Translations under genes and position numbers: made by a program
NCBI GenBank assembly: GCA_963769885.1
Contig: CAVYNH010000004.1
Coordinates: forward strand, 75,904 to 139,903
Direction: 5' to 3'
Length of the DNA: 64,000 nucleotides
Source: Methanobacteriota archaeon
GTDB taxonomy: Archaea; Thermoplasmatota; E2; DHVEG-1
Shown here: in pieces, positions 20,910 to 63,884 of the stretch
How positions within the stretch are numbered: position 1 is the first letter of the stretch
Layout of the letters: every line of letters begins with the position of its first letter
The notes under the pieces: generated by a model
Databases searched by the model: none
Told to the model about the DNA's origin: nothing
Seen by the model: the letters and a program-made list of their open reading frames with translations, nothing else

Positions 20910-21189
20910 GTGCTCGTACCCGCTCCAGAAGGCAACCGCGTGGGTAGCGTTTGCGGAACCCGGGGTGTGCCTCGAACATCCTCTTAGCGCTGTGGGATTT
21001 TAGCATGGTCTCAGCGGCTTGGATGGAGTACCGCTTGGGGACGTTGACCTGGAAGAGGATGTGGTCTTCGGCGAAGCCGAGTTCGCCGAAGCCAAACCCG
21101 TGGTGTTCCAGATCGTGGAACGCCTGGGTGCAGATGTCGATGTGGCTTTGTCTGCTGAAGCAGTGGTAGCGGTTTTTGGTCACAAACAT
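20910..21189 (-). pseudogene. Degenerate IS200-like TnpA (HuH Y1 transposase) remnant
   Basis: Inside track ORF 20479..21366(-): NRYHCFSRQ...GELGFAEDHILFQVNVPKRYSIQAAETMLKSHSAKRMFEAHPGFRKRY resembles TnpA (YHC...PDHVHLLVSIPPK...LKG.SAR.LF.EFP) but HVH is HIL and the Tyr region is lost; GC-rich. Confidence 0.35.
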
Positions 21190-21452
21190 CGTGGTCACCC
21201 AGTTGTTGCGGGTGTCACCCGCAATCTTTTTAGAGCTGCCGCTCGATACCATCTCCATAAATGTATTTTCTCCTGTCGCGCCTTTACAGGGGGCAGGCGG
21301 ACGCCTGCCCGCGCGCGACAAAAAACAGTATATCGAGTGTTTTGGGAAAAAGATGGCGTCTTTCATCAGCGAGTCTTCACTGCGGTTCAGACCGCATAGT
21401 ATTCCCAGTCCAGCAAAGAACCCAAAGAGATGGAACCAACAAAGAGAGCTGG

Positions 21453-33807: not shown

Positions 33808-35229
33808 TTATATGGGATTATTATACTGAACAAGCATGAAAGGAGTATTAATTTCCTCTTTCATGCCCCATAATTCAACCGAACCACTTAATGTTCTTAT
33901 CTGATTTACGACTTTTTGTACAATTTGTGGATCATCCTCTTGAACTAAACGCGCTTTAATTAAAAGAATCCAGATAGTCTTAACAATGTTTTTAAGAGGA
34001 GATGTCGTTAAATCAACCAATTCTTCAAAACTATCTACCAAAGTCCTCCGATCCTTCTCCCGAATGGCTGCGGGAATAGAAGTTACTCCTGCTGAGAGTG
34101 TATTAATAATTTCACGTCTTCTACCTTTGCGTTTAAGTTCTTCTAATAATTTATCCGAAAAAGTCCCAAATGCGCTGTGTAAGTCTATAGTATTTTTTTT
34201 ATACATCTTTATAGGATCTTTTTGAAAAGAATATGTATGCCATGTTCTATTCATAACTTCAATTATATTCCCTCTCAGCATTTTCTCTTCTTCGGTAACT
34301 TCTTTGTCATGCTTTCGAATCTCAATAACCAAATTTACCGCTTGCTTAACCTCCCACTTTTGCATGGGTATTTGAACTATTTTTGCTGCATGAACAGTTT
34401 CAGTTTCGCTACTTCCGAAGGGAAATGCCGGCGCTAATATTTTTCCATCTTCGTCTGTTAATTGTAAATCATCATCAATGGCCATCATAGTAAAACCTCC
34501 TCGACTGTATATCTTTGGGGCCACAATATAATGCAAAGTCCTGGCAGTTCTGTAAGCTGTCAAAGGTGAATTATTTAATGAATTCTCTATCCGCTCAACA
34601 TTATGATTTAACCCATAAAGTTCCTGCCATTTAACCCTTTCAGCAATAAAAAAAGGAAGTCTACTCAAGTCTTGAATCAGTGGATTTTCCTGTTTTTTAA
34701 TATTATACTCTTCTCTTGCATGCTTATCAAATCCATTAATTCTCAATTGATACTCTTTAGATTTTTCAGATACTTCTCTTTGAAACTCAAGATCACCATC
34801 CAAACGTGCATCCTCAAATAATTGAGCACGAATAAGAGGCTTATCTTTAGGAAGTTCTTTAATAAACTTATCAAAGATATCCTTTTGATAACTTTCAAGG
34901 CTATTTCCAATAATAGGTACGAGTAAATCCGCTTTTATTAACTCCAATACTTGATCTAAAGATGCACCACAATAATTAAAAAATTCATCATCACTCCGAT
35001 AAGGTGGTAAATACATAATAACTTTGTCTAAAAAGACTGGATAGAGCCATACTGGAATGAAATTACCTGTATACGCAGGTTTATCTCCCCTTCTATAATA
35101 AGTGTCGAGATTCCCTAATTCATAATATGGTAAAAATATACTACGAGGTTCTTTCTTTTCTTCCAACTGATCGATACTGAAAATTGTTTTCTCCTTAATA
35201 AGTTCCTCAAAGCTGCTCATTTCCTCCAC
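33808..35229 (-). CDS. Hypothetical protein (473 aa), overlapping-coupled to the upstream DUF692-like gene
   Basis: Track ORF; start overlaps end of 35217..35939 by 13 nt; no motif recognised. Confidence 0.5.
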   Translation of the reverse strand: MEEMSSFEELIKEKTIFSIDQLEEKKEPRSIFLPYYELGNLDTYYRRGDKPAYTGNFIPVWLYPVFLDKVIMYLPPYRSDDEFFNYCGASLDQVLELIKADLLVPIIGNSLESYQKDIFDKFIKELPKDKPLIRAQLFEDARLDGDLEFQREVSEKSKEYQLRINGFDKHAREEYNIKKQENPLIQDLSRLPFFIAERVKWQELYGLNHNVERIENSLNNSPLTAYRTARTLHYIVAPKIYSRGGFTMMAIDDDLQLTDEDGKILAPAFPFGSSETETVHAAKIVQIPMQKWEVKQAVNLVIEIRKHDKEVTEEEKMLRGNIIEVMNRTWHTYSFQKDPIKMYKKNTIDLHSAFGTFSDKLLEELKRKGRRREIINTLSAGVTSIPAAIREKDRRTLVDSFEELVDLTTSPLKNIVKTIWILLIKARLVQEDDPQIVQKVVNQIRTLSGSVELWGMKEEINTPFMLVQYNNPI

Positions 35230-35939
35230 CCCTTAATCATATTTAATTGTTCAACAATATCTTTTTCTGATTCTATGTTTAATATCAATTCTTTATTTAA
35301 ATTTTTTTCTAAAATAAGTTTAAGTATTTTTTCCGCATCATTAGAATAATAAAAAGGTTCATTTATATCATACCAAACTCCATCCTTCCGTAACGGAGAA
35401 TTCACGTGAATCTCATAAATCAAATCAATTCCTATCCTTTTCACGAAATCAACAGTATCTATCTTAAACTCACAAGCAGAAATCATCGTATGTGCGATAT
35501 CGAGCAAAATTCCACATCTTGTTTTCCTTGCTATTTTTGAAATAAATTCATACTCACAAACAAATTCATAGGCTCCAGTAGGATGATAGTCCAAGTTCTC
35601 CACTAAAATCATTCCTTTATAACCTTCTTCGCCTAATACATCTTTGACTATATTCAACGACTCGGAAATGCTTTTGAAAATTTCGCCCATTGATAGAGTT
35701 TCTCCTATAGCAAAATTATGTTTGTCTATCCCCTTCATTCCAACTATTTTAGATGAGAAACCGAGATGAAAAGAAATTACAAAAGGCTGTAAAATTTTAT
35801 AAATCTTGTAAATGGAAGAACCACTATCCTTTAACATCTCCTTAACTTCGTCTGAAACCAGATTTAACGTTACGCTCTTATTATGCTCGTGGAGATATTG
35901 AACATGCATTGAAATTGGAAACTTCCTTAAGATTTCCAT
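35217..35939 (-). CDS. Xylose-isomerase-like TIM-barrel protein, DUF692-like (MbnB/MNIO-type) candidate
   Basis: FHLGFSSKIVG, ILVENLDYHPTGAYEF, CGILLDIAHTMISA, EIHVNS follow the order of recalled DUF692 blocks (HGVSLS / ENxSSY / CxLLLDVNN / HLAGH); N-terminus shorter than typical. Confidence 0.45.
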   Translation of the reverse strand: MEILRKFPISMHVQYLHEHNKSVTLNLVSDEVKEMLKDSGSSIYKIYKILQPFVISFHLGFSSKIVGMKGIDKHNFAIGETLSMGEIFKSISESLNIVKDVLGEEGYKGMILVENLDYHPTGAYEFVCEYEFISKIARKTRCGILLDIAHTMISACEFKIDTVDFVKRIGIDLIYEIHVNSPLRKDGVWYDINEPFYYSNDAEKILKLILEKNLNKELILNIESEKDIVEQLNMIKGWRK

Positions 35940-42864: not shown

Positions 42865-44757
42865 TCACTGTCTATGGAAGTGTGGGAAACAGTTCAGGAG
42901 GGTGACTTGGAGTTCGTCGCTGTCGTACAGGCTCAGAGGCCGGCCGTACTCAGAGGTGTAGCCGTAGACGCTGAGGGTTGCCTCCGTCAGGAACATCCTG
43001 AGGTTCAGTCTCCAGGTGAAGGGCCGGCTGGCGTCGGTGTGGTACAAGGTGCCGTCGAGGTAGAACTCGACCTTGTCGATCGCGGCGACGGCGTTGACCT
43101 CGATGTCGAGGGGGCCGAGGACGAAGACGCCTTTGTGGGGGCGCTGGAGCGGCCGGTTCCATAGATATATCGTGTTGTTCTGTGGTCTGGTGATCTGTAG
43201 GGACTTGACGACCGAAAGCGGTGTTTTTTCTGAGCGGACGTAGCCGGGATTTTCCGCGTAGACCTGGTAGTCACCGGGTGTGGTGCATTGGATGATCGCG
43301 GTCCCGGACTCATCAGTCGCGTAGCGGGTGGTCCCGACCCAGATCGTGATGTTCCCGACAGGGGCCATGGTCTCGTTGTAGGTATGCACAAGGAGTTCCT
43401 CTGAGACGTTGATGGTGTGCTTGCCAAGGGTGATGCGCAGGGCGTGGGCGTCCCATTGTTCCAGGTAGCCGAAGAGGACCTGCCGGGTGGTGTTGTTGAG
43501 GAGGTAGTGTCCGGCGTCGATCATGGGCAGCGTGTAGTCGACCCAGTAGTGCCACCAGTCGGAGTCGTTGGCGATGGTCTTGACGTAGAAGGCGCCCCAG
43601 TCGGGATAGTAGATGATGTCGTAGGTGATGTGTGCGGCGTCCAGGGCGGTGACCAGGGCGCTGAGGACCGTGGGGTCTGGGAAGGTGTAGTGTTGCATCT
43701 GCCCACTGCTTTGGTTGTAGGCCTGGATGGTGGTGTTGCTGCAGTGGATGGTGCCGTTGAAGAGGGTTGTGGTTTTTCCTTCGACGCGCACGGTTCCTGT
43801 CCATTCGGCTCCGGTGGAGGGGTCCTGGTGATGGGTCGGCTGCCAGATCCTCACGGGGTAAGGATGTGCGAGGAGCGCGCAGAGGACGTAGGAGGTCATC
43901 CATTCGGGGTTGAGGTTCTGGGTGGTGCTCCAGTTGAAGCCGCCGTCGGTGCGCTGGAGGCTTGTGAGGTAGTCGATGGGTGTGTGGTTGTTCTTCTGCC
44001 AGGATGGGCTGGTGGGGTCTTGGTCGGCTTTGATAAGGGCGCAGGTCGTCCAGGCGGTGGAGGCGGCATTGGTGGTCCCCCAGGATTGGAAACCTCCGTT
44101 ATTAGCTTGAGTGGTTTTGAGGTAGGCGAGGGCGGTGGCGATGGACGTGTCTTGCGGGTCTTCTCCTGCGGCGGTGAGTGCCATGATGGCGGCCGCGGTG
44201 GTGTCGGCGTCGCCCCAGCCGCCGTTATTTTGTTGGTAGGTGAGGATGTAGGCTTTCTCCTGCTGGATGAGGGGTGCCTGTGGTGCGGTGCCGCAGGCGA
44301 CCAGGGCGAGGATGCCGAAGAGGTCGTCGTAGAGGAGGGTGGGGTTTCCAATCTGTGTGCCGTCGTAGAAGCTTTCCAGTTTGGTGAGGAGGTTTGTTCC
44401 TGCGACTGTGGTGGGGTCTTGGCCGCAGGCGACCAAGGCGAGGGTCTGTCGCTGCCAGTCTGTAGCCGTGTTGTTGTCGAGGAGGGTGAGGCTGTCGACG
44501 AGGTAGGCGGTGAGGCGGGGGTCTGTTTTGTTGGCGGCGGCGTAGGCCATGGCTGCCCATGCTGAGGTGGCGGGGCCAGCGATGCTTCCGTCCGGTGCCT
44601 GTATTGTTTGGAGGTATTGGAGGGCGTTGGTGATGACAGGGTCGTCGGGTGAGTAGGGGTAGGTCGCTTGTGGGTCTGCGGTGACGAGAGATAATGGTTG
44701 GGTGATGAGGGGGAGGGCTAGTGTGAGGAGAAGGAGGGTGGCTGTTGTTTTTTTCAT
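42865..44757 (-). CDS. Secreted protein with prenyltransferase/terpenoid-cyclase-like alpha/alpha-toroid repeats and a C-terminal beta-rich domain
   Basis: Start set at internal ATG 44757 (MKKTTATLLLLTLALPLITQPLSLV signal peptide); repeats GGWGDADTTAAAIMALTAAGEDP, NNGGFQSWG, TDGGFNWS; track ORF extends to 45210 but that extension overlaps the divergent ArsR gene and is Ser/Thr/Arg-rich. Confidence 0.6.
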   Translation of the reverse strand: MKKTTATLLLLTLALPLITQPLSLVTADPQATYPYSPDDPVITNALQYLQTIQAPDGSIAGPATSAWAAMAYAAANKTDPRLTAYLVDSLTLLDNNTATDWQRQTLALVACGQDPTTVAGTNLLTKLESFYDGTQIGNPTLLYDDLFGILALVACGTAPQAPLIQQEKAYILTYQQNNGGWGDADTTAAAIMALTAAGEDPQDTSIATALAYLKTTQANNGGFQSWGTTNAASTAWTTCALIKADQDPTSPSWQKNNHTPIDYLTSLQRTDGGFNWSTTQNLNPEWMTSYVLCALLAHPYPVRIWQPTHHQDPSTGAEWTGTVRVEGKTTTLFNGTIHCSNTTIQAYNQSSGQMQHYTFPDPTVLSALVTALDAAHITYDIIYYPDWGAFYVKTIANDSDWWHYWVDYTLPMIDAGHYLLNNTTRQVLFGYLEQWDAHALRITLGKHTINVSEELLVHTYNETMAPVGNITIWVGTTRYATDESGTAIIQCTTPGDYQVYAENPGYVRSEKTPLSVVKSLQITRPQNNTIYLWNRPLQRPHKGVFVLGPLDIEVNAVAAIDKVEFYLDGTLYHTDASRPFTWRLNLRMFLTEATLSVYGYTSEYGRPLSLYDSDELQVTLLNCFPHFHRQ

Positions 44758-44812
44758 AAGTTTCTTGCCTCTTGGGGTGTGTAGGGAGTCGGTAGGTTTA
44801 AATGTAGCAAAA

Positions 44813-45358
44813 ATGATGATGATTGTTAGTACTATGGGTAACGATGTGTTTAAGGCCTTGAGTAGTCCGACGCGGGTGAGGATTCTCAAGGAGCTTGCGG
44901 GCCGGGAGCTGCATGTGTCCGAGGTTGCGCGAAGGCTTAAGTTGTCGGTGCCTGTGGTCGCTCGGCACGTGCGGGTGCTGGAGGGTGCTGGGTTGGTTCG
45001 GAAGCGGGTTGTGGGGAATCTATATTTGTTGTCGTCGGTGGGGGTGAACGTGGAGGAGGCGTTGGATCCGCTGGGGGAGGAGGCGCGGGTGTCGATTGGG
45101 GAGCGTGAGAGCCTGTTTGATGCGCTGCGGCAGGTGCCTGGGGTGGAGATTACGCGGGTGGGGGATGTGCAGTATATCACGTCGATTAACGGGGAGCGGG
45201 GGTACTTCATCTATGAGGTGGATGGGAAGGCGCCGGGGGTGCCGATCGATCAGTACCGGCCGGGGCGGACGGTGCGGCTGCAGGTGAAGCGGCTGGTGCC
45301 GGTTCGGAAGAAGACGGTCGAGGTACAGGTGCAGCGGGGGGAGAACCAGGAAAAATAA
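44813..45358 (+). CDS. ArsR/SmtB-family HTH transcriptional regulator, divergent from the toroid/DUF4430 operon
   Basis: VFKALSSPTRVRILKELAGRELHVSEVARRLKLSVPVVARHVRVLEGAGLV; start chosen at internal ATG so as not to overlap the divergent gene. Confidence 0.6.
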   Translation: MMMIVSTMGNDVFKALSSPTRVRILKELAGRELHVSEVARRLKLSVPVVARHVRVLEGAGLVRKRVVGNLYLLSSVGVNVEEALDPLGEEARVSIGERESLFDALRQVPGVEITRVGDVQYITSINGERGYFIYEVDGKAPGVPIDQYRPGRTVRLQVKRLVPVRKKTVEVQVQRGENQEK

Positions 45359-46729: not shown

Positions 46730-46916
46730 TTCTCGTATTTTGATATATAAAGGACTATTAATAATTTTTTTTCAAATAAGTGTGCAGAAACAAGCCAAGG
46801 ACAGTGATTGGGTGAACCTCATACAAAAGCTGGATGAAGTACCCGGGATGGTCAAAGCTATAGGAATATATAAACAAATTAAAAGTTAAATATATGTTAT
46901 TTATTATCTTGTAAAA

Positions 46917-47888
46917 ATGCAAAAAAAAGAACAGGGAAATAATTCTATTGCTTATTACTATGATGTTGCATTATCGTTTGCTGGGGAGGATAGAAATTTT
47001 GTTGAAAAAGTGGCTCAGGAATTAATAAAAATGGATATTAAAGTTTTTTATGATAAATATGAAGAAGTAATTTTATGGGGAAAAAATCTGTATACACATC
47101 TAAGAGACATCTATCAAACAAAAGCAAGATATACAGTAATGTTTATTTCGAAGAATTATGCCCAGAAAGTCTGGACAAATCATGAACGAGAAAGCGCACA
47201 AGCTCGGGCTTTTATTGAAAATAAGGAGTATATCTTACCTGTTCGTTTTGATAATACAAAAATTCCAGGGGAGTTACCTACCATTGGTTATATCAGTTTA
47301 AAGGGTAAAACACCTAGAATGTTAGCTGAATTAATTAAAGAAAAAATAGGGCCGATACCTCGGATTAACTATTTTCCAGATAATCCCGATCGATTATTCG
47401 AAGAATTAAAAGTAAGAGAACCAAAAAAACAGGAATTAATATATAATTTAGCATATACATTTCATGAGAGCTTTAAGTTAATGACTCCTACTGAGAGAGA
47501 TATTTTGTTTAAAGCATACTTAGAGACTTGCCCGGAAGGGCCCCCAGAGAATATTCATTTAAACCTTCAATATTTTTTAAGAATATTGTCCATGGAAAAA
47601 CAAGAACTTATTGCGATTTTCTCTAGGCTGGACTGTTTGGGTTTCCGAACAAAAATTAATAAGGTAAATGAAAAGAAAGACCGTCACAAAATATGTGGGG
47701 ATAGTGAGATAATAACAATTACATATGAAATAAATAAACCTGCCTTTTCAGGGAATGCATCCTTTATAATGATTTCAATTTTCGATATTATGACAGACTT
47801 GATATGTAAGGATTGTTTACGGATAACTTTGGAGAATGCGGATTTTTCAATTTTAAGCACGGCAGTTGGATATAAAGAAAAGAAATAG
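46917..47888 (+). CDS. TIR-domain protein with C-terminal domain of unknown function
   Basis: N-terminal YDVALSFAGEDRNFVEKVAQELIKMDIKVFYD...ARYTVMFISKNYAQKVWTNHERESAQ matches the bacterial TIR pattern (DV(F/A)(I/L)SxxxED...S.W...E); ~170-aa C-terminal region without recognisable motif. Confidence 0.65.
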   Translation: MQKKEQGNNSIAYYYDVALSFAGEDRNFVEKVAQELIKMDIKVFYDKYEEVILWGKNLYTHLRDIYQTKARYTVMFISKNYAQKVWTNHERESAQARAFIENKEYILPVRFDNTKIPGELPTIGYISLKGKTPRMLAELIKEKIGPIPRINYFPDNPDRLFEELKVREPKKQELIYNLAYTFHESFKLMTPTERDILFKAYLETCPEGPPENIHLNLQYFLRILSMEKQELIAIFSRLDCLGFRTKINKVNEKKDRHKICGDSEIITITYEINKPAFSGNASFIMISIFDIMTDLICKDCLRITLENADFSILSTAVGYKEKK

Positions 47889-48018
47889 TTTCTCTGACCC
47901 CCTCCAGGAATTTATAAGGAGTAGAACGATTATCTTTCTCCGAGAAAAATAAGGTCAAAATTGACCCCCAGATGCTGCGAGCATCCAGGGGTCTGAGACC
48001 ATAATAGGATGTGCTATT

Positions 48019-49014
48019 ATGATCCCAAGCGGGAACAATACCCATAGTGGTAATAAGATTTTGGTGCAGGCCAGTTTAAATCAGATAGCGACTCAAAAAC
48101 AGTTGAACACATCACCTAAGGCAATTACGACTTCGGTCATACAGACTTCTTCTTCGAAACAAGAAAATGACAATGACAATCTCTTGGACAAGTTCAACCG
48201 TTACATGCGTGAGAACAACTACAGCAAGAGCACCATCTACATGTATACAAAGGTTGTCAGCCAGATGCTTGCCATGAAAGATCCGCTCTCCATGACGGAG
48301 GATGATCTCAGCGACGTTCGGCTCTACCTTGTTGAACGCTATGCTCAGAATGGGAACCGGGCGAGGTTCGCTGCCATCAACGCCTTCTGCAAGCATATCC
48401 TTAAACGAAAAGACCTGCACCTAAGGATTCCCGGACCCGTCATCAAGAACAAGGACGTGTTCACCAATGAACAGATCGATGCTATCCTTGCTGTTGCGAA
48501 GACAAAAAACAAGCTTGCCTATGCCATACTTCAGACCTTGTACCACTGCGGACTACGCAAGATGGAGCTGGTTAACCTGAACCTCTCTGATCTCAACTTC
48601 GAAACTATGGAACTTCGATTGGACAACACCAAGACCGGAAACGCCATCGTGTCAATGACCACGGCTGTTGCTTTGGCGCTGCAGGATTACATCGAGAATG
48701 AAAGATCTAAGAAAGAGGGTGAACAAGCCGTTTTCCTCAACAAGAAAGGAGTTCGCATTGGAGAATGGGATGTTAGAGGGTACCTCAAGAAATGTGGAAA
48801 AGAAGCCGGGATAACATCCCGGATGTATCCACATATGTTACGCGCATCATGTATCACACATTTATTAAATAAAGGCGTGAATCCTCTCACGGTGCAGCTT
48901 CATGCCAGACACAGAAATTTCATGACAACCATGAGATATAACAGGCCAACTCAACAACAGATGAAGGCTGATATAGAAAGAATATTCTCTATAACTAATC
49001 AAGAAAAGATTTAA
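48019..49014 (+). CDS. Tyrosine recombinase (XerC/XerD-like integrase), intact
   Basis: C-terminal catalytic region HMLRASCITHLLNKGVNPLTVQLHARHRNFMTTMRYNRP (R..H..R..Y pattern); N-terminal SAM-like region NRYMRENNYSKSTIYMYTKVV. Confidence 0.75.
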   Translation: MIPSGNNTHSGNKILVQASLNQIATQKQLNTSPKAITTSVIQTSSSKQENDNDNLLDKFNRYMRENNYSKSTIYMYTKVVSQMLAMKDPLSMTEDDLSDVRLYLVERYAQNGNRARFAAINAFCKHILKRKDLHLRIPGPVIKNKDVFTNEQIDAILAVAKTKNKLAYAILQTLYHCGLRKMELVNLNLSDLNFETMELRLDNTKTGNAIVSMTTAVALALQDYIENERSKKEGEQAVFLNKKGVRIGEWDVRGYLKKCGKEAGITSRMYPHMLRASCITHLLNKGVNPLTVQLHARHRNFMTTMRYNRPTQQQMKADIERIFSITNQEKI

Positions 49015-49025
49015 AATATTATTTC

Positions 49026-50522
49026 ATGTTCCTAAATATTATGCTGAATAAAATAAGGAAAATACAGGAATCTTATTTTACCTTAGTCGAAGATTACTTA
49101 GGAGATTTTTACAAACTTGCTAATAAAAAAGATGGATTATATGGAAAAGTAATTAAAGAATTATATGAAAATAAAATATCTGGATTATCCCATACAGAGT
49201 GTGAACTTACACTAGATTCTTTTGAAGAAGATATTTCAAAAATATGGAAAAAGAATTTTTGGACTATTACAAAAGAAATCGAGGAATTGAACGGAGTAAA
49301 AACATATAATTTTTTCGTCCCGATGCCAAAATCTTTTTCTCTTACAGATACACATGCAACAGAGATTTTTCGAAGATTTGGTCTTTATTCTGATACTATA
49401 ATTTTGGATGATCCAATGTGGCGGGCTGTAGCTAATAAACAAGAGTATGAGGTTCTTTTTCGGTATATGAAATTTTTAATTTATGGTTTAAACATTCTTA
49501 AGATGAAGAATATAGTTCTTGCAGACGTCGACCAACCTATCGCATTAATAGTATCTCTCGACTCCATCGATTCAGCTAGAAAAAAACAATTTCAGTCTAT
49601 TGTTGAAGAACAAATTTGCATGTTTTCATCAACTTTATTCCAAAAAAAACTAGCCAGTTTAGATCAGATTAAATCATTTATGGATTCCAAAATAAAATCT
49701 TTAAAAGAGTTTCAAATGTTCACAAAAAATCAATATACGAATAACAAATTTTTTATCGATGCCGTCAAAGAATTATTTAAATTAAAGACAACTGGCGATA
49801 GTGGAATTCGCTATTTTTATGGAGATGGATTACCATATGTTCTCCCTAAAAAGGAAATCTTCAGTGACATTTTTATTCATGCAGCATATGGTTATGTATC
49901 CTATTCAAATCAAATTTATTTAAAATCATCTCTTATAGATTCTTTCCCATTATTTACAGAAAAAAAAGTGTGGGAAGAATCAAATCAATTTCTTATGAAT
50001 GATTATTCAATGACTGCGAGTTATTTAAAAGGGAAAACGCCAACTCATTTAATTGGAGTCAATGTTTTAGCAGATGATACATTCAAATGGTTAGGTAATG
50101 TTCCAGAACAGACTTTAATTGAACTTAGAAAAAAAGAAGAATTAAGTAATTTTAGACATTTTTTCTCTGATAAATTAAATGAATATCATGATGCAAATTT
50201 AGAAAATATTAATAAAATTATTAAGGACTTAAATTACTCACTGTCTAATGCTTTCAAAAAGCACGAACAAGAGGTAAATGAATTATTGAAAAAATATTCT
50301 ATTAAAAAAGATATCGGCAAACTAATTGTCTCTGGATCTATAGCTATAAGTGGGTCTGTTTATTTTCCATTAGGAGTATTAGGCACAATACTTGGGGGGA
50401 AAACGATAACCGATATTTTCAATAATATTAAACAAAAGAAAAGTGAAATAGAAATATTGAACAAGAGACCTGTGGCAATTTGTTATGAGGCATATAAAGA
50501 TGAAGCAACTGAAAATATTTAA
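49026..50522 (+). CDS. Hypothetical protein (498 aa) immediately downstream of the integrase
   Basis: Track ORF 12 nt after integrase stop; AT-rich; no P-loop or other motif recognised. Confidence 0.45.
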   Translation: MFLNIMLNKIRKIQESYFTLVEDYLGDFYKLANKKDGLYGKVIKELYENKISGLSHTECELTLDSFEEDISKIWKKNFWTITKEIEELNGVKTYNFFVPMPKSFSLTDTHATEIFRRFGLYSDTIILDDPMWRAVANKQEYEVLFRYMKFLIYGLNILKMKNIVLADVDQPIALIVSLDSIDSARKKQFQSIVEEQICMFSSTLFQKKLASLDQIKSFMDSKIKSLKEFQMFTKNQYTNNKFFIDAVKELFKLKTTGDSGIRYFYGDGLPYVLPKKEIFSDIFIHAAYGYVSYSNQIYLKSSLIDSFPLFTEKKVWEESNQFLMNDYSMTASYLKGKTPTHLIGVNVLADDTFKWLGNVPEQTLIELRKKEELSNFRHFFSDKLNEYHDANLENINKIIKDLNYSLSNAFKKHEQEVNELLKKYSIKKDIGKLIVSGSIAISGSVYFPLGVLGTILGGKTITDIFNNIKQKKSEIEILNKRPVAICYEAYKDEATENI

Positions 50523-50610
50523 AAGGATTAAATCCCCTTAGCAATACTACTAAGAAATTTTACTTATTAAGGCTTAATCTTCTAATAAATAAATTTGAAA
50601 TTCCCCGCCC

Positions 50611-50904
50611 TTATTTCTCAGGCTTCAATTCGCCGCATTTGGGGCATATATAAGTAGCCTTTGAAGTCAATTGACCATGGCAGTAAGGGCAAATATAAGT
50701 AGATGGTTTAAGGGAATATCTTCTATAGACAATGGCTGCAATCGCTAAGGCATTGAACAATAAGTATACCCATAAAACATCCAACCAAACAATAGGAATA
50801 CTAAAGAGACTCCAAAAATTGGCGGCTAATAGAAAAACATCGAAAACGAAAAACCATTTACCACTTCGTAGAGCATAATCAACCAAAATAGGAGGAATCC
50901 TCAC
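50611..50904 (-). CDS. Small membrane protein with C-terminal zinc-ribbon (hypothetical)
   Basis: Hydrophobic segments plus CPYCHG...CPKCG. Confidence 0.4.
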   Translation of the reverse strand: MRIPPILVDYALRSGKWFFVFDVFLLAANFWSLFSIPIVWLDVLWVYLLFNALAIAAIVYRRYSLKPSTYICPYCHGQLTSKATYICPKCGELKPEK

Positions 50905-51159
50905 TTAGACCCTCCTTTCCACAAAACAACCACAATTAGGACATTGAATCATTTCTTTTGTCAAAACTCGATTACATCTCGGGCATTTCCGGCCAGAAGA
51001 TACTCTAGAAGGGCTCCTAAAGCTATACCCCCAATAATACCGAGAGCGACCCCAGCTATTGCTTCACCCAGATCAGCATCGTCTCTCTTACTCATCTCGT
51101 GCAAATGAAGTCAAACACTACATAAAAACATTGCTCCAAGCTTAGTTTTTTATTTTTCT

Positions 51160-52449
51160 TTACAATTCACTAAGGGTATCATTATCAATTTGTTCAATAG
51201 TCTCGATGCCAAAATGTTTCCTTAGTATTATGATCAATTCAGATATCAGATAAATAGCTAAAATTGCTGTTAATCTTATGTTTGCTCTTTTTTCAAAAGT
51301 GTCAAGATCATTAGGTTCTGGAAATAACTCATGAGCTGACTTAGAAGCCGAGATGTGAAAAGAAAGAAAATAGGAGCCTACCCTGCTATCAATAATATTT
51401 TTTGTTTCAAGGATTTTTTCCAAGTCTCTAAGAGATTCCTTCTTATTAAACTCTATCTTTTTCAAGGAACAAATCTTTTCTCCTATCGATTGTAATAAGG
51501 CTCTAGCATCTCTGAATAATGAACTATATTCTCTATTTCTGTAAGATTGATATATTTTTTCTATCGAAGGATAATAATATTCTAAAATTTCGCCTAATTC
51601 CTTATTAGAAGTCCCCCTTAAGTTCTTCAAATGTTGATAAAGAGCCTCAGCAATTTTCATTGTTTTTAAAGGATCTCGGTCAAAGAAGTCAAATCTTTCA
51701 TCTTGATAAGATCCTGAATCAAAAGAGTCTTCCAATTTCTTCTGAATTTCTTCATATGGAATATCAAATTCTAATATCTTTTTCTTGATTTTTGGTGAAA
51801 TATTATTTATCAAACTAACTATAGAATTATAATCAGTAAGAGCACCACCACTATCCAAACCACAACAATTGGGGAAAATGACCCAAAAAGAGAAATCGCC
51901 AAGACCCGCTCTTAAATCTAAGAAAATTGCCCAGGTGAAATTTCTATTTTGCAAATGACCTATATGTCTTATCTTATAAATTAAAATCTTTTTGGGTTTA
52001 AATGAAAGATAACCATTGAGAATAATCTCAAAAAAAACAGAAGCTGAAAGACCAATATTACTGAAAATTTTAATGGGACGATCTCCAAAAATAAAATTAA
52101 CTTTTTCCTTCTCCTTTTTATTATTAAATTCATGAGCTGAAGAAGAGATCCATCTTGAGAAAAATTTTAATCCCGGAAAATAAGAGAAAAAGGATGTTGT
52201 ATTGAGCTGAGTCAAACCAAACTCATTCTGATAGATCAAAGAGCACTTTATTACTGGTAAATTCTCCTTATCTTGACCTTCTAAACTAGCAAATAAAAAA
52301 ATCGATTCTTCTTTCGATTCAATATTCGCTAAAAAATAATCTGTAAGTTCTGCATCTTCTATCCCTCTCTTTTCCACTTTCGGTTTTTTTATATTGAACT
52401 CTCGAATAATTTGATTTACGCCTTCCTCAAATTCTTCCCTTGTCAACAT
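51160..52449 (-). CDS. Hypothetical protein (429 aa)
   Basis: Track ORF; AT-rich; no motif recognised with confidence. Confidence 0.45.
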   Translation of the reverse strand: MLTREEFEEGVNQIIREFNIKKPKVEKRGIEDAELTDYFLANIESKEESIFLFASLEGQDKENLPVIKCSLIYQNEFGLTQLNTTSFFSYFPGLKFFSRWISSSAHEFNNKKEKEKVNFIFGDRPIKIFSNIGLSASVFFEIILNGYLSFKPKKILIYKIRHIGHLQNRNFTWAIFLDLRAGLGDFSFWVIFPNCCGLDSGGALTDYNSIVSLINNISPKIKKKILEFDIPYEEIQKKLEDSFDSGSYQDERFDFFDRDPLKTMKIAEALYQHLKNLRGTSNKELGEILEYYYPSIEKIYQSYRNREYSSLFRDARALLQSIGEKICSLKKIEFNKKESLRDLEKILETKNIIDSRVGSYFLSFHISASKSAHELFPEPNDLDTFEKRANIRLTAILAIYLISELIIILRKHFGIETIEQIDNDTLSEL

Positions 52450-52648
52450 TCGGGTTAAGAAGGAATTAATTAAAGATAAATCTTGGTATCTAAAGGTAAA
52501 GGTAGGTATAGTTGAGGCTACACCTTATCCTATGAGAAAATCATGCAATAATCCTAACCCTCTCTTTTGGCATAGCTCGAACCCCCAGCCAGTTTAAAGC
52601 GGTTCATGAATAATAAAAGAAATAAACGACTTACCTAAAAGCTGTGTT

Positions 52649-53050
52649 TTATTCTGATTCAGTATTGGTATCTTCCTTAGATATTACGATAAGCCATCCA
52701 GGAGAATTTGACTTAACATACATTTTATTCCCGCTTGGAAAATATGTAATTTCAGAGGGCGGATATTTCGGAACGATTTTTGGACCTTTGCGAGGTTCGA
52801 TCTCATACAAGTTTTGCCCAGATTGAACATATAAAAGATCAGGCTCCCCATATCCAATAAGCCTTAACTTTGATTCCTGAGAACTGTTTTTTTTATCTTC
52901 CAAATCATAGTGATGCTGACTCTTATCAGGTAAAATAATATGAAGCCCTGAAGGAGAAGCCTGGGGTTTTAATTTCCACCACACTCCAGGTTTTTCTATT
53001 AAGTAGTATTTCTTTTGATTGATTATTACTGGTTTACCTGATTTAGTCAT
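52649..53050 (-). CDS. Hypothetical protein (133 aa)
   Basis: Track ORF; no motif recognised. Confidence 0.35.
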   Translation of the reverse strand: MTKSGKPVIINQKKYYLIEKPGVWWKLKPQASPSGLHIILPDKSQHHYDLEDKKNSSQESKLRLIGYGEPDLLYVQSGQNLYEIEPRKGPKIVPKYPPSEITYFPSGNKMYVKSNSPGWLIVISKEDTNTESE

Positions 53051-53206
53051 AGACTTGAATATATCTCCGTTGTTTTCTTTTTTCCTTTTAGTGTTAATGA
53101 CCGGCTTTAAAACCTTCCCGGAATTATCCCTTATTGATCAAACTATTATTAAAAAATAGCACACTTTCAAAAGCATGTTTATATAGTTTTTAATCATTAA
53201 CATGGA

Positions 53207-53452
53207 CTTAGTGTTTTCGGGCCTGTTTTTTATAAGGGGATGTGAACAAGTTTTCAGAGTTCCTTCAGCGGCTTTGAATATCCATCTAGCAATTCCACTA
53301 GATAACAGTTAGATTTCCTATTCGAATAGTCAATATTTTTCAATCAGATAAGTAATCATATTTGACAAACTACGTTTTTCCTTTTCTGCTATCTTTTTTA
53401 ATTTTTCTACGCTTTCTTTAGGGATGGTAATGTTGAGTCTCACGTATGCCAT
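53207..53452 (-). CDS. Ribbon-helix-helix (CopG/Arc-like) small DNA-binding protein candidate
   Basis: Own translation (not in ORF track): MAYVRLNITIPKESVEKLKKIAEKEKRSLSNMITYLIE... beta-strand then two helices typical of RHH; 81 codons to a TAA stop by my reading. Absence from the track means a reading error cannot be excluded. Confidence 0.35.
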
Positions 53453-53549
53453 GCTTATTTAATATGTGGTAAATGTGTTTTATGCTATATACAGATTTTA
53501 TACATACTTGATATGTTTATATACTGTATTCAGTATGCATGAATAAAGA

Positions 53550-54452
53550 ATGAAAAAAATCGTTCAAGAGAGAAACGCAGTTGCAGGAGTTATTGAAGCA
53601 TTGCTTCTCGTCGCTCTCATCGCCATCATCATCTCAATGATCCAACTCCAATACATCCCGCAAATCATGGAACAACGAGAAGCAGACCACATGGACCAAG
53701 TCGCAAACCAATTCGCGTACCTTAAATCTCTCATTGACATCCAGGCTGTCGCAGGATCCATGGGAACAGGAACGCCCCTCGCCTCCGCGCCCATGAACGC
53801 CCAGTTGACACTAGGAAGCGGGCAGCTGCCATATTTCATTACTGCGCCAGCAGTCGGCCAGATACAAGTAGAGAACGACAGTCAATCCTTCATCACTATA
53901 GGACCCTACCCGTTATATGAAGAGAAGACACAACATCCAAAAGACAAGTTTTGGTTGGCTTGTATCGAGTATGATGCTGATAACTCCTATTTCGTTGATC
54001 AGACATATATCCTTGAAGGCGGAGGTATCATCCTAAGTCAGCCGCATGGGAAACCCGTCATGAGAGCGGACCCCTGCATTTCCTTCACAAACAACAGCAA
54101 TAATAGTATCACGGTACGATTCTACCTCCCCATCATCATCGGATACGCTGGGAAGAATATGACCTCTGGCACAGGCAGCTGCTTTGTACGGACAACCTAC
54201 GCTAATTCCACCACCTATGCCACAAGGCCAGGGGATTGGAGCAACATCACCATCCAATCACGGTACGCAGACGCCTGGAACGAGTCATTGCATCGAGCCT
54301 TCAGCCCAGTTAAAAACTACGTACAAGTTGCTCACATCCCAGGGACGAATACCGTACAAATAACGTCGTCAGCGCCACGAATACAACCAATAAATCTTGT
54401 GTTAACCATAGTGGTGATTCAGTGCGAGATCGGCCCCGGATGGGTCATCTAA
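53550..54452 (+). CDS. Putative archaeal type IV pilin-like protein (class III signal peptide)
   Basis: N-terminus MKKIVQERNAVAGVIEALLLVALIAIIISM: charged region then hydrophobic helix as in prepilin signal peptides; Thr/Ser/Asn-rich remainder. Confidence 0.4.
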   Translation: MKKIVQERNAVAGVIEALLLVALIAIIISMIQLQYIPQIMEQREADHMDQVANQFAYLKSLIDIQAVAGSMGTGTPLASAPMNAQLTLGSGQLPYFITAPAVGQIQVENDSQSFITIGPYPLYEEKTQHPKDKFWLACIEYDADNSYFVDQTYILEGGGIILSQPHGKPVMRADPCISFTNNSNNSITVRFYLPIIIGYAGKNMTSGTGSCFVRTTYANSTTYATRPGDWSNITIQSRYADAWNESLHRAFSPVKNYVQVAHIPGTNTVQITSSAPRIQPINLVLTIVVIQCEIGPGWVI

Positions 54453-56050: not shown

Positions 56051-56341
56051 ACATTGATCTCCTTAGGAAAAAATAGCGGGTCTTTTTCCGTTGAAAATCG
56101 GAAATGCTATTAACCACCTCGGTTTCGTCACCTATGAGCATTGATGACAGGCAGCCAATCCATACCTGAGGGAGTCCGAACACCGGGGACGCTCACAGGT
56201 AATTTTTTATCCCAGGGATCGTATATAATCCCTACCAGATCGCCGTATGACCTGGTAGGAGGCGTATCAAAAAAATGGACCCACACTACACCACAGTTAG
56301 GCGAACATTTTGCAAACAATCAACCCCTACACGGGGAGGAA

Positions 56342-57493
56342 ATGGTGAATCGACCTTATGTAATTCAACCGTACCTTAATGTAGACGAAAGACCACGAAT
56401 CGATGATAGAAAGCTGATCATCTCGTTGCATGTCGACCGATCTAAATATACCACCCATGAAGAAATATACCATGAGATCACAAAATGGTGGGTCAACATC
56501 AAGAATCGATCCGCAACTACCGTAAAAGACCGCATATGCCATGCACGATCTATGCAACACCACCCGATCTACCCGGTAGACTGGCTGCAATTTGACCCAG
56601 TGCAAATCCTAAACCAATTACTCTACCGGCAGATCCACGAGTATCCAGAACTCGCTAAAAAGACCGGCAGACCAACCTACGGAGTGACACAGTTAAACAA
56701 TCTCTGGAAAGTCGTACGAATGTTCTCAGAGGCGTACGGCGTCGATATTTCGCATTGGGGCTGGACTCCGCCAACTCCGCCAGAGCCACAAGTCAAAATC
56801 GTTCCCAGGCCAGAAACCGTCAACAAACTCATGCACCATTGGTACACGAACGATCGATTCGAGAACGCCCTCATTCGAACGCTGTTAACCGTTGGTTTTC
56901 ACACTGGAGTACGACCAGAGGAACTTGTCATCCTGAAGGTTAAAGATGTGCGCTTTGATGAAGGATATCTCCTCATCCACGAACAAAAAAAGAAATACCG
57001 AGAGCGACAAGTATGGATCGATGAATCGGTTCTCTCAAGCCGCCAACAAAACAGCCTACGAAACTGGGTAATCCTTTGGAGACCGCGAAAAGCCAACGAG
57101 AAATCTGGAGATTTTCTGTTCATCCAGAAGAATGGCACCCCGTTTCCATCTGCAGAAGCCCTTCGCATGTACCTCATGCCTTTCTGCAAGCCAGTATGGC
57201 CTGATTTCAAGCCTAGAATCATGAGGGACTGGAGCGCCATCGCACGGTTGATACGAACAAAAATCGAGACAAAGAAATGGGATACCAGGATCGTGAAAAA
57301 CGATCTCGGGCATAAACATGAGAAAACGACGGAAAGCTATATTCGATTCGCGGAAAACTACTATCGCAGGGACCCATACGATTGGCTACGGGCCGTCCTG
57401 AAATTTCACCCAGACAGCAAACGAATGCTGTCTCTGAGACAGGAATACGGGCCGAGCCAAGAAGTTACCGTAATAGTTCCGCACGCAATGTAG
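56342..57493 (+). CDS. Tyrosine recombinase/integrase adjacent to the 3' end of tRNA-Arg
   Basis: Start set at ATG 56342 preceded by GGGGAGGAA; catalytic region VGFHTGVRPEEL...LGHKHEKTTESYIRF (H...Y); ends 70 nt from the tRNA 3' end. Confidence 0.7.
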   Translation: MVNRPYVIQPYLNVDERPRIDDRKLIISLHVDRSKYTTHEEIYHEITKWWVNIKNRSATTVKDRICHARSMQHHPIYPVDWLQFDPVQILNQLLYRQIHEYPELAKKTGRPTYGVTQLNNLWKVVRMFSEAYGVDISHWGWTPPTPPEPQVKIVPRPETVNKLMHHWYTNDRFENALIRTLLTVGFHTGVRPEELVILKVKDVRFDEGYLLIHEQKKKYRERQVWIDESVLSSRQQNSLRNWVILWRPRKANEKSGDFLFIQKNGTPFPSAEALRMYLMPFCKPVWPDFKPRIMRDWSAIARLIRTKIETKKWDTRIVKNDLGHKHEKTTESYIRFAENYYRRDPYDWLRAVLKFHPDSKRMLSLRQEYGPSQEVTVIVPHAM

Positions 57494-57563
57494 GTACATG
57501 TGGAATCTCAACAACGGGTAAAAACAGGGCTCCTGAGGTACGAGTCCCTCCTGTTGAATTTTA

Positions 57564-57637
57564 CGGACCTGTCGGGATTTGAACCCGAGTCAGAGGCTCC
57601 GGAGGCCTCTGTGATATCCAAGCTACACTACAGGTCC
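57564..57637 (-). tRNA. tRNA-Arg (anticodon CCG)
   Basis: Own fold: acceptor GGACCTG/CAGGTCC, anticodon stem GAGGC/GCCTC with loop CTCCGGA, T-arm TCGGG-TTCAAAT-CCCGA, discriminator G; 74 nt. Confidence 0.75.
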
Positions 57638-57740
57638 ACGAGTGTTTCTTTGCTATCAATCCAACCTTAATTAGATTTTCCACAAGCAACATAAACCACC
57701 ACGAGCCTCGACCACATATAATAAAACCGGAGAACCACGT

Positions 57741-60850: not shown

Positions 60851-62092
60851 ATGACCTTCCCTAAGCCCCCGGAAGTCAACATCGGCATGATCGGCCACGT
60901 CGACCACGGGAAAACCACACTGACACAGCGGCTCACCGGGAAATGGACTGACGTCCACTCTGAGGAAATAAAACGCGGCATCTCAATCCGCCTCGGCTAC
61001 GCGGACGCCGCCTTCTACAAATGCCCACACTGCGAACGACCCCAATGCTACACGACCCAGAAAACCTGCCCGCACACCAACGAACCCACGGAACTGCTCC
61101 GCGTCGTCTCCTTCGTCGACGCCCCCGGCCATGAGACCCTCATGGCCACCATGCTGTCCGGCGCGGCAATCATGGACGGCGCCATCCTCGTCATCGCCGC
61201 CAACGAGCCCTGCCCGCAGCCGCAGACTCGCGAGCACCTCATGGCCCTCGAGATCGTGGGCACCAAGAACATCATCATTGTCCAAAACAAGATTGACCTC
61301 GTCTCCGAGGCCGACGCGAAGAAGAACTACGAGCAAATCAAAGCCTTCGTGAAAGGCACCTGCGCAGAGAACGCGCCAATCATCCCCGTCAGCGCGCATC
61401 ATGATATCAACATCGACGCCCTCATCCAGACCATCGAGACTGTTATTCCTACACCGAAACGGAACTTCAACAAGCCCCCGTTGATGCACGTCGCACGAAG
61501 CTTCGACATCAACAAACCCGGCATCAAACCCAGCGAGCTTCACGGCGGCGTTGTCGGCGGCACCCTCATCCAGGGGACCCTCCTAATCGGGGAAAAGATT
61601 GAGATTGCGCCCGGCCGTAAGATCGAGGCCGAGGGCAAGTCGCATCTCGAGCCGATCTACACGACGGTCAGCTCCCTTGTCACTGGAGGAGAACCCGTGG
61701 ACAAGGCGCTGCCTGGCGGACTCTTGGCGATTGGGACGGAGCTGGACCCGGGGCTGGTGAAGTCGGATTCGTTCGCCGGCAAAGTCGTGGGGCGCCCCGG
61801 GGAACTGCCGCCGGTGGTCGACACCCTGACGCTGACGATGTGCCTGCTGAAGCGGGTCGTCGGCACAATCGACGAGAAAAGCGTCGAGCCATTGAAGACG
61901 AACGAGCCGTTGATGCTGACGGTCGGGACGGCGACAACGGTTGGTATTATCTCTGATTTGCGCAGCGACTGGATTAAGGTTCGGCTGAAGCTTGCCGTCT
62001 GCGCCGATAAGGGGCAGCGGATCGCGGTAAGTCGGCGTATTGAGGGGAAATGGCATTTGATCGGGTACGCGGAGATCAAGGCTACCGGGTAG
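60851..62092 (+). CDS. eif2g: Translation initiation factor 2 subunit gamma (aIF2-gamma)
   Basis: G1 motif [10 protein letters not shown], zinc-ribbon [30 protein letters not shown]; starts 1 nt after rps6e stop. Confidence 0.85.
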
Positions 62093-62460
62093 TCGTCCTT
62101 GATAGTAGTGCGGCGTTGATGCCGTTTGAGTTTTCGATTGACCTTGAGGCTGAGTTGAAGCGCCTGTTGGGCGCGATTTTGATTGTCGTTCCATTATCAG
62201 TTGACAAGGAGCTGCGGTTGTTGGCGCAGCGTGAGACCGGTGAGAAAAAAGGGAAGGTGCAGGCGGCGTTGAAGCTGATTGACCGGTATGAGCGTGCAGG
62301 GGTGGAGGCGCTGTCTGCGGATGATGCAGTGGTGATGGTTGCGTTGAAGCGGAAGGGGGTGGCGGTGACGAACGATACGAAGCTGCGTCGTCGGTTGCGT
62401 GATGTTGGTGTGCCGGTGGTGTTTTTGCGGGGGAAGCAGCAGCTGGTGCTTGAGGAGTAG
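62050..62460 (+). CDS. PIN-domain protein
   Basis: [16 protein letters not shown]...[27 protein letters not shown] (acidic residues in PIN-like order); start uncertain (track ORF overlaps aIF2-gamma end by 43 nt). Confidence 0.5.
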
Positions 62461-62521
62461 CGTTTGGTTTTTGGGGTCGAAAGTTATTAGAAGGCGGGTG
62501 GGTTTTCCGTGTGGTATTCCT

Positions 62522-62642
62522 GTCGGGGTGGCTCAGCCTGGCCAGAGCGCCTGACTCATAAGCGTAGCTTGAAAGGTTCGTACAATCGTTTCGGGCGAGC
62601 GAAGACATCTGGAGGTCGCGGGTTCAACTCCCGCCCCCGACA
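62522..62642 (+). tRNA. Intron-containing tRNA with CAT anticodon (Met or Ile2), ~45-nt intron
   Basis: Acceptor GTCGGGG/CCCCGAC, D-arm GCTC-AGCCTGGCCA-GAGC, anticodon loop CTCATAA, T-arm GCGGG-TTCAACT-CCCGC, discriminator A; ~45 extra nt after the anticodon loop. The 3' anticodon stem has a U-U mismatch in my fold, so the intron boundaries are uncertain. Confidence 0.5.
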
Positions 62643-63866: not shown

Positions 63867-63884
63867 CAAATCCCGACAGGTCCG
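63867..63884 (+). repeat. 18-nt exact copy of the tRNA-Arg(CCG) 3' end, inverted relative to the gene at 57564..57637; candidate att-site remnant
   Basis: caaatcccgacaggtccg equals the reverse complement of 57564-57581 (T-loop 3' part, T-stem 3' strand, acceptor 3' strand, discriminator). Confidence 0.5.

Follow-up and report, generated by a model that had tools for sequence, protein, structure and literature searches.

We analysed a 64,000-nucleotide stretch of DNA from an archaeon of the Thermoplasmatota (contig CAVYNH010000004.1, positions 75,904 to 139,903; the window in what follows), and in it a gene at 46917..47888 that encodes a two-domain protein with a TIR domain at its N-terminus. 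The gene lies at the left edge of a block of low guanine-cytosine (GC) content and is followed by a recombinase gene. We found the following features at the locus.

46730..53550, no strand: low-GC block of ~6.8 kb with 33.6 % GC, holding the TIR gene, a recombinase and four orphan open reading frames (ORFs)
46917..47888, forward strand: complete TIR and winged-helix gene, 323 amino acids (aa), taken from the ORF list, with an ATG start and a TAG stop
46950..47351, forward strand: TIR domain, residues ~12-145, placed by Pfam, Foldseek, PADLOC and PDB matches
47079..47090, forward strand: BB-loop core G55-K-N-L58, from the HMMER alignment to G174-D-S-L177 of AbTir, a solved Acinetobacter NADase
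47166..47186, forward strand: active-site helix K84-V-W86-T87-N-H-E90 (WxxxE), from the alignment to AbTir, codons checked
47184-47186, forward strand: codon of the catalytic glutamate E90, the E of HERESAQ
47352..47885, forward strand: family-specific C-terminal domain, residues 146-323 (~178 aa)
47481..47759, forward strand: winged-helix core, residues 189-281, from model secondary structure, fold matches and conservation
47529..47531, forward strand: Cys205, putative zinc ligand 1
47556..47558, forward strand: His214, putative zinc ligand 2
47805..47816, forward strand: Cys297-x-x-Cys300, putative zinc ligands 3 and 4, in the turn between the last two helices
48019..49014, forward strand: intact Xer-like tyrosine recombinase (Phage_integrase E=1.7e-33) with a SAM-like N-terminal domain

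The window protein retained all of the residues that are invariant in its family (35/35), including the catalytic and Cys/His positions. An identical protein (P0001) was found in public collections on a 392-kb contig, and the same protein was recovered from an independent sequencing run.

We used both profile and structure searches to assign the N-terminal part, which the original prediction had read as a TIR domain, and the two approaches agreed on the TIR fold. Pfam TIR_2 matched residues 17-131 (E=3.3e-19, 70 bits, gathering cutoff 28), and a second Pfam family, TIR, matched the N-terminus with E=7e-7. Several PADLOC TIR models were found on the same part, with PDC-S66 giving the best score (67 bits) and ThsB1, TIR-APAZ and retron-TIR also matching. 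AbTir was the best solved relative in a PDB sequence search (E=1e-6), and its filament structure 7uxu was the best Foldseek match (TM 0.79 on target). Foldseek matches to AbTir, SPARTA, BtpA and plant TIRs all had a probability of 1.00.

The HMMER alignment placed K84-V-W86-T87-N-H-E90 over AbTir K202-D-W204-T205-N-Y-E208. E90, the glutamate singled out by the original prediction, was therefore aligned with the AbTir catalytic residue, and W86, E90, G55 and L58 were invariant in 49 full-length homologues and 59 TIR-module-only proteins (108 in total). Work on AbTir has shown that E208A is dead and that G174 is essential, that W204 is required for cyclisation of ADP-ribose (ADPR), that K202 touches the diphosphate, and that the BB-loop is needed for head-to-tail TIR assembly and activity (10.1101/2022.05.07.491051). 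The window protein thus has the motifs of the NADase class, namely WxxxE with the catalytic glutamate on the alpha-C helix together with the BB-loop glycine. Judging by this intact motif, the TIR domain looks catalytically competent and is probably an NADase.

The C-terminal domain, left unassigned by the original prediction, gave no Pfam family at E<=1 when 32 members were scanned and no sequence relative in the PDB at E<=10 in a profile search. The isolated domain was nevertheless modelled as a winged helix with a predicted local distance difference test (pLDDT) value of 90.4, and it stayed above 90 within the full-length model (predicted template modelling score, pTM, 0.82). A conserved FFPxxPDxL linker is followed by a helical hairpin, the winged-helix core and two C-terminal helices. 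The core consists of H1 (191-202), a strand (213-216), H2 (217-224), H3 (228-241) and two wing strands (243-250 and 263-280) that form a long beta-hairpin, the same H1-strand-H2-H3-hairpin topology as in solved winged-helix domains. Its fold neighbours were mostly transcription factors of the MarR, ArsR, CodY and IclR types.

To describe conservation in this domain, residues were counted over 150 family representatives. Position 205 was Cys in 140/141 and position 214 His in 143/145 of them; position 297 was Cys in 129/131, and position 300 was either Cys (73/131) or His (56/131). In a C...H...CxxC/H set, a position that alternates between Cys and His is a classic sign of structural zinc. Given the near-invariant pattern and the exchange at position 300, we propose that C205, H214, C297 and C300 probably form a structural zinc site, by which the C-terminal helices would be anchored on the winged helix. 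Other near-invariant residues were E193, R194, R222, P154 and D309. Across the family the domain had a mean net charge of -2.2 and a mean isoelectric point (pI) of 6.8, with -3 and 5.7 for the window protein. The recognition helix H3 had a mean net charge of -0.8, and its residues vary in the wider family. A DNA-binding winged helix would have a basic, conserved recognition helix and wing, a pattern that was not seen here, so a conventional DNA-reading role is disfavoured for this non-basic domain with its variable H3. We conclude that the domain is a new, previously unannotated, family-specific winged helix that probably binds zinc.

More than 100 proteins of 308-350 aa were 45-56 % identical to the query in alignments that span 95 % of it, and those with names carried the label 'TIR domain-containing protein' only. 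A profile of the C-terminal domain found 212 representatives (50 % clustering level) among 1.84 billion proteins. Among the best 150 of these, 80 had a TIR module in front, 64 were short pieces and 6 had other N-termini. The 64 short matches were considered as stand-alone copies of the tail, and since many of them start exactly at the invariant Met189 they are probably fragments; the Met189 starts are likely gene-caller starts on truncated contigs. In one protein of 389 aa (P0258), a class III adenylate/guanylate cyclase (Pfam Guanylate_cyc E=6.9e-11, residues 21-194) precedes the tail (230-381), suggesting that the tail may also gate a cyclic-nucleotide synthase. With TIR nearly always in front and a cyclase once, the tail appears to be an uncommon module that is joined almost only to output enzymes which process nucleotides, and the single cyclase-linked copy is what would be expected of a portable regulatory module.

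Seen from the other end of the protein, a TIR module 50-70 % identical to the query was found at 80 reference-genome loci. The C-terminal domain was present at 21 of them, where it was 21-47 % identical to the query. At the remaining 59 loci the same TIR module was joined to other partners: Ig-like domains (11/59), PilZ, WD40, EAD1, GUN4, a peptidoglycan-binding domain, a STAND NTPase and a Type ISP restriction enzyme. The TIR clade shares the signature ALSFAGEDR...WTNHERxSAQAR and turns up, at 55-70 % identity, in a wide range of architectures. A conserved TIR with faster-evolving, interchangeable partner domains would be the expected pattern for the usual sensor-effector immune design.

The family is patchy, occurring in several bacterial phyla and two archaeal lineages, and full-length homologues were found in diverse bacteria and in two Methanoregulaceae archaea. 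The closest relatives of the window protein are bacterial (Thermodesulfovibrionia, Anaerolineae) and from Methanoregulaceae. At one bacterial locus (Nonomuraea sp. 3-1Str, L015, 9980-12480) we observed a second, divergent TIR protein of 328 aa without the tail. It is 35 % identical over the TIR part, convergent and ~550 nt downstream of the TIR and winged-helix gene, and it is followed by a tyrosine recombinase; this may be a TIR gene cluster.

Gene neighbourhoods were surveyed at 27 homologue loci overall. ORFs within 6 kb of the gene at 22 full-length loci were clustered all against all, and the only cluster present in all 22 was the TIR gene itself; a tyrosine recombinase was found in 5/22. 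Among 135 neighbour proteins, Pfam showed repeated occurrence of IS91 transposase domains (4 and 3 members), of Phage_integrase (4) and of various housekeeping enzymes, while PADLOC detected restriction-modification (RM), MADS, HmaC, QatC and ThsB, one occurrence each. On six further annotated contigs the gene stood as a solitary insertion, and its neighbours were often toxin-antitoxin genes (PIN/CopG, PIN_3/RHH, HigB) or prophage-like ones (ImmA/IrrE-DUF4411, KilA-N). As a candidate partner we considered two 206-aa ORFs that lie upstream of homologues, and these proved to be unrelated to each other.

No recurring partner gene was thus found in the 22-locus clustering, in the Pfam and PADLOC scans of the 135 neighbours or on the six annotated contigs. 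A ThsA-type effector (SIR2-SLOG, Macro or caspase-like) did not recur among the neighbours of the 27 loci, a check that for the 135 neighbours extended to the 25 families reported most often. In the window, neither Pfam nor PADLOC detected a ThsA-like gene next to the TIR gene, in agreement with the original prediction that this is not a canonical Thoeris locus. As no neighbour is conserved across loci, the gene appears to work alone, as the genes of single-protein TIR systems do.

GC changes abruptly at both ends of the low-GC block, from 0.47 to 0.30 at ~46.7 kb and from 0.30 to 0.51 at ~53.55 kb. The TIR gene has 31.7 % GC as compared with 60 % for aIF2-gamma, the gene that, together with an intron-containing tRNA, marks the host as archaeal. 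Further genes relevant to the block and the host are listed below.

49026-50522, forward strand: orphan protein, 498 aa, starting 12 nt past the recombinase stop codon
50611-50904: 97-aa membrane protein with a zinc ribbon, between the 498- and 429-aa orphans
51160-52449, reverse strand: orphan protein, 429 aa, with weak NCBIfam matches (topA_arch E=1e-4, STM4504/CBY_0614 E=3e-4)
60851-62092: aIF2-gamma, whose named relatives at 77-81 % identity are Thermoplasmatota

The genes for the 498- and 429-aa orphans have 28-31 % GC. No match was found for the former in Pfam, PADLOC or NCBIfam, nor for the latter in Pfam or PADLOC. We considered an integrated element bounded by attachment (att) repeats, which is unsupported, as there are no direct repeats at the block flanks; the island is accordingly drawn from base composition. 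The block is a probable horizontally acquired island, and the TIR gene was probably acquired horizontally by the Thermoplasmatota archaeon; its closest relatives, bacterial and from Methanoregulaceae, are consistent with such a transfer.

The recombinase starts after a 130-nt gap from the TIR stop codon. Its Phage_integrase match spans 2-170 of 172 profile positions and the catalytic R-H-R-H-Y residues are present (R180, H272-x-x-R275, H298, Y307), so that the intact integrase seen directly downstream by the original prediction was borne out. Two more specific assignments were rejected: as a housekeeping XerA, since NCBIfam XerA_Arch gave 134 bits against a cutoff of 220, and as an integron integrase, for which the score was under the cutoff. 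Across the homologue loci this neighbour is context and not a conserved partner. An independent assembly of the locus (Logan contig ERR10755944_601746; L001, 5270-6426) runs out 185 nt past the TIR stop codon, where the recombinase gene has only just begun, and the recombinase has copies of at least 90 % identity on other contigs (cluster of 4). The assembly break and these copies suggest that the recombinase is repeated or that the junction is polymorphic in the population.

Directly supported are the folds of the TIR domain and of the winged helix, the intact catalytic motif, the conservation pattern of Cys and His, the lack of a partner gene and the patchy distribution on mobile islands. 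From them we infer enzymatic activity, zinc binding, a trigger, clustering and a role in defence, and we read the protein as an abortive-infection TIR NADase that acts on its own as a single protein and carries a new sensor domain, a function that we hold to be somewhat probable. The N-terminal TIR would be the enzyme and the zinc-stabilised winged-helix tail the sensor or regulator. A TIR active site arises only where two TIR domains pack head to tail, and we therefore propose that the resting protein is inactive. The tail would bind a cue derived from a virus or mobile element, for which an oligomeric protein is more likely than DNA in view of the non-basic recognition helix. Cue-bound copies would cluster, and their TIR domains would assemble head to tail through the BB-loops. 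E90 would then catalyse the cleavage of NAD+, W86 possibly permitting a cyclic ADPR product, and the resulting depletion of NAD+ would arrest or kill the infected cell.

An accessory or defence role is supported by the recombinases, IS91 elements, toxin-antitoxin genes and single RM, MADS, Hma, Qat and ThsB neighbours described above, and by the best PADLOC match, PDC-S66, being a single-gene defence candidate. The original prediction had framed the gene in terms of NADases or signal producers in defence. We still infer as much, and the framing is strengthened by the intact WxxxE and BB-loop, the lack of a conserved partner and the mobile-island and toxin-antitoxin contexts.

Several observations weigh against this reading. 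The TIR part of the full-length model is of moderate quality (pLDDT 56-80), and BB-loop residue 57 is Asn where AbTir has Ser176, mutation of which abolishes activity (10.1101/2022.05.07.491051). The zinc is read from conservation alone. No att-like direct repeats flank the low-GC block, and at many homologue loci the flanking genes are ordinary housekeeping ones that do not make up a recognisable defence island. Finally, the full architecture was absent from the sequenced phages and plasmids searched, in which the TIR module alone was present.

The same active site could serve a different purpose if the protein were a Thoeris-like signal producer, with a winged helix that senses and a TIR that makes a cyclic ADPR isomer or an ADPR conjugate for an effector encoded elsewhere. 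W86, the aromatic residue needed in AbTir-type enzymes for ADPR cyclisation, is invariant, PADLOC ThsB1 matches the TIR part with E=5.4e-10, and the authors of the SpbK study leave open an unlinked receptor for a cyclic product. All described Thoeris types, however, keep the TIR and the effector in one operon, and no SIR2/SLOG, Macro or caspase-like partner was adjacent in the window or recurring at the 27 loci. Nor would a lone mobile gene be sure to meet a receptor in every host that it enters. The original prediction had mentioned a SIR2-like gene ~31 kb away, and an ORF of 377 aa does lie there (15106..16239, reverse strand), which would speak for this reading. Its match is weak (PADLOC SIR2 E=9e-5; NCBIfam deacylase E=3e-5) and confined to the C-terminal half, and it fits neither the ThsA nor the SLOG model. 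We regard a signal-producing role as unlikely.

A nucleic-acid cue was also weighed. The tail might recognise viral nucleic acid, such as replication intermediates or unusual DNA or RNA forms, and template head-to-tail TIR filaments on it. Because the tail domain is non-basic, we grade this low, and as slightly less probable than signal production.

The protein could instead be a DNA-binding regulator whose winged helix binds operator or chromosomal DNA and whose TIR is an oligomerisation or NAD-sensing module; it would then control transcription and not kill the cell. This would suit the structural neighbours, mostly transcription factors, and a weak HTH_IclR match in the tail region of one homologue. 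The tail is, however, neutral to acidic, its recognition helix is non-basic and poorly conserved, and the invariant residues gather at the Cys/His site and the linker and not at the DNA-reading face. Neither a conserved gene nor an operon lies nearby to be regulated, and a pure scaffold would have no need of invariant catalytic TIR residues. We find such a regulator improbable.

To the same low degree we would credit a stress or addiction toxin of mobile elements, in which a Cys3His/Cys2His2 redox or metal switch frees the TIR NADase upon thiol or oxidative stress or zinc limitation, leading to island stabilisation or dormancy in place of virus sensing. Nothing in the tail is more conserved than the Cys/His cluster, toxin-antitoxin genes and recombinases are frequent neighbours, and some fold neighbours are the redox-sensing MarR proteins AbfR and SarZ. 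The likeness to redox MarR proteins is at the generic fold level only, though, and the C-x8-H ... C-x2-C/H spacing with its Cys/His exchange fits a structural zinc clamp; nor is there a conserved antitoxin-like partner. If the gene were a passenger on a degraded island, decaying or without function, this would explain the missing flanking att sites, the orphan cargo genes and the independent assembly that breaks right after the gene, yet such a passenger is very improbable given a full-length ORF that retains every invariant residue and recurs as an identical protein in an independent run.

Elsewhere in the window we noted the following features.

7028-8977, reverse strand: OLD-family ATPase-TOPRIM nuclease, 649 aa (Pfam AAA_15 and OLD-like_TOPRIM)
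14618-15100, 15106-16239, 16549-17478 and 19094-20023: four orphan ORFs of a low-GC stretch
26964-32828, reverse strand: giant GC-rich ORF, 1954 aa
35217-35939, reverse strand: MbnB/TglH/ChrH-like modification enzyme for ribosomally synthesised and post-translationally modified peptides (RiPPs), Pfam E=1.1e-11
42865-45210, reverse strand: GC-rich gene for a 781-aa protein with prenyltransferase/squalene-cyclase-like repeats and Ig-like domains
within 56141-57638: second tyrosine recombinase, 450 aa (Phage_integrase E=7.6e-13)
57563-57638, reverse strand: tRNA-Arg(CCG), 70 nt from the end of the second recombinase
62522-62642, forward strand: tRNA of 121 nt (Rfam 50.8 bits), missed by ARAGORN

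The 649-aa OLD-family protein matched the PADLOC models Old (E=1.9e-53), AriA (1.8e-45) and GajA (1.6e-27), and its gene is adjoined by archaeal Mre11/Rad50-like genes (9233-13053). The stretch at 14618-20023 has very low GC (25.7 % at 15-16 kb), and its four orphan ORFs are without a Pfam family. An IS110 transposase (13302-14279) borders it on one side and an IS200-like Y1 transposase (20479-21366) on the other, a setting in which it may be another defence or cargo island. The 1954-aa and 781-aa genes have 56-63 % GC and are interleaved with blocks of 26-35 % GC, an alternation that makes the window a strong compositional mosaic (GC 0.26-0.61 in 1-kb windows). A 473-aa orphan ORF (33808-35229, reverse strand) lies in a stretch of 32-35 % GC, with its start overlapped by 13 nt by the RiPP-modification gene; 33808-35939 may be a small peptide-modification operon.

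An integrase beside a tRNA gene, as with the second recombinase, is the classic arrangement of an integrated element. We found no direct att copy of the tRNA-Arg in the window and no partial copy to the left of the second integrase. An inverted, perfect 18-nt copy of the tRNA-Arg 3' end was observed at 63867-63884, beyond the tRNA. The length of the 121-nt tRNA suggests an archaeal-type intron, and the ORF at 61583-62608 (reverse strand), whose 5' end overlaps this tRNA, may be spurious or mis-started.

Among known systems, single-protein TIR NADases are the nearest to our preferred reading. In SpbK, docking of the non-TIR domain on the phage portal causes the TIR domains to cluster (PMC12847820), and several single-protein TIR systems protect E. 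coli in a manner that requires the catalytic residue (PMC11350192). SpbK of the Bacillus subtilis element ICEBs1 and E. coli TIR-V, -VI and -IX (Wang et al. 2024) are, like the window gene, single genes of mobile elements, and they share a TIR NADase with a catalytic glutamate plus, or beside, a non-TIR recognition part. The logic that we propose is that of SpbK: once a sensor has bound a viral component, TIRs come together through the BE interface and destroy NAD+ (PMC12847820, PMC11350192). The domain order is reversed, with the TIR N-terminal in the window protein, the sensor is a family-specific, putatively zinc-binding winged helix, and the host is archaeal. SpbK was absent from the PDB sequence matches of the window protein at E<=1.

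AbTir, BtpA/TcpB and PdTIR are the closest solved TIRs by sequence (E=1e-6) and by fold (TM 0.79). They share with the window protein the K..WT..E active-site helix and the BB-loop Gly and Leu, but identity is only ~22-24 %. They differ in having an N-terminal coiled coil and a C-terminal TIR, with no zinc winged-helix domain, and some are secreted virulence factors. For the tail, domains of the MarR, ArsR and CodY types are among the closest known systems. PDC-S66 is likewise a single-gene candidate, but in it a different domain comes first and the TIR follows towards the C-terminus (profile positions 139-245 of 282). Where the TIR module of the window protein occurs in other fusions, Ig-like, WD40, STAND, EAD1, GUN4, PilZ or Type ISP parts take the place of the winged helix.

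Three further TIR systems were compared by their defining features. Thoeris ThsB is also a TIR protein thought to sense infection, though the ThsB1 model matches the TIR part only, and Thoeris types I-IV have a ThsA-type effector (SIR2-SLOG, Macro-TM or caspase-like) in the same operon; as none is adjacent in the window or recurring among the neighbours of the 27 loci, the gene is not Thoeris. For SPARTA, a short prokaryotic Argonaute (pAgo) system with TIR-APAZ, the PADLOC model Aga_TIR-PNTD covered residues 21-141 only (E=8e-6), the tail is a winged helix and not APAZ, and there is no Piwi/Ago neighbour in the window. For retron-TIR (type XII RT-TIR), NCBIfam Retron_TIR_antiphage gave 55.7 bits against a cutoff of 600, on the TIR part only. 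With the defining feature of each lacking, the gene belongs to none of the three.

Apart from CRISPR and RM, little of archaeal defence has been charted. The single-protein TIR NADases form an emerging class of antiviral switch, for which the question is what each of them senses. The family described here offers a compact protein of 323 aa with a confidently modelled, unannotated and probably zinc-dependent sensor. It also points to one strongly conserved TIR cassette, 55-70 % identical between phyla, that is shuffled among many sensor modules, in archaea (Thermoplasmatota, Methanoregulaceae) as well as in bacteria. If active, the protein would be a tractable model for the gating of TIR assembly by a winged helix. 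The result as a whole is a well-supported annotation rather than a discovery; what is new relative to the known systems is the sensor domain and the archaeal host.

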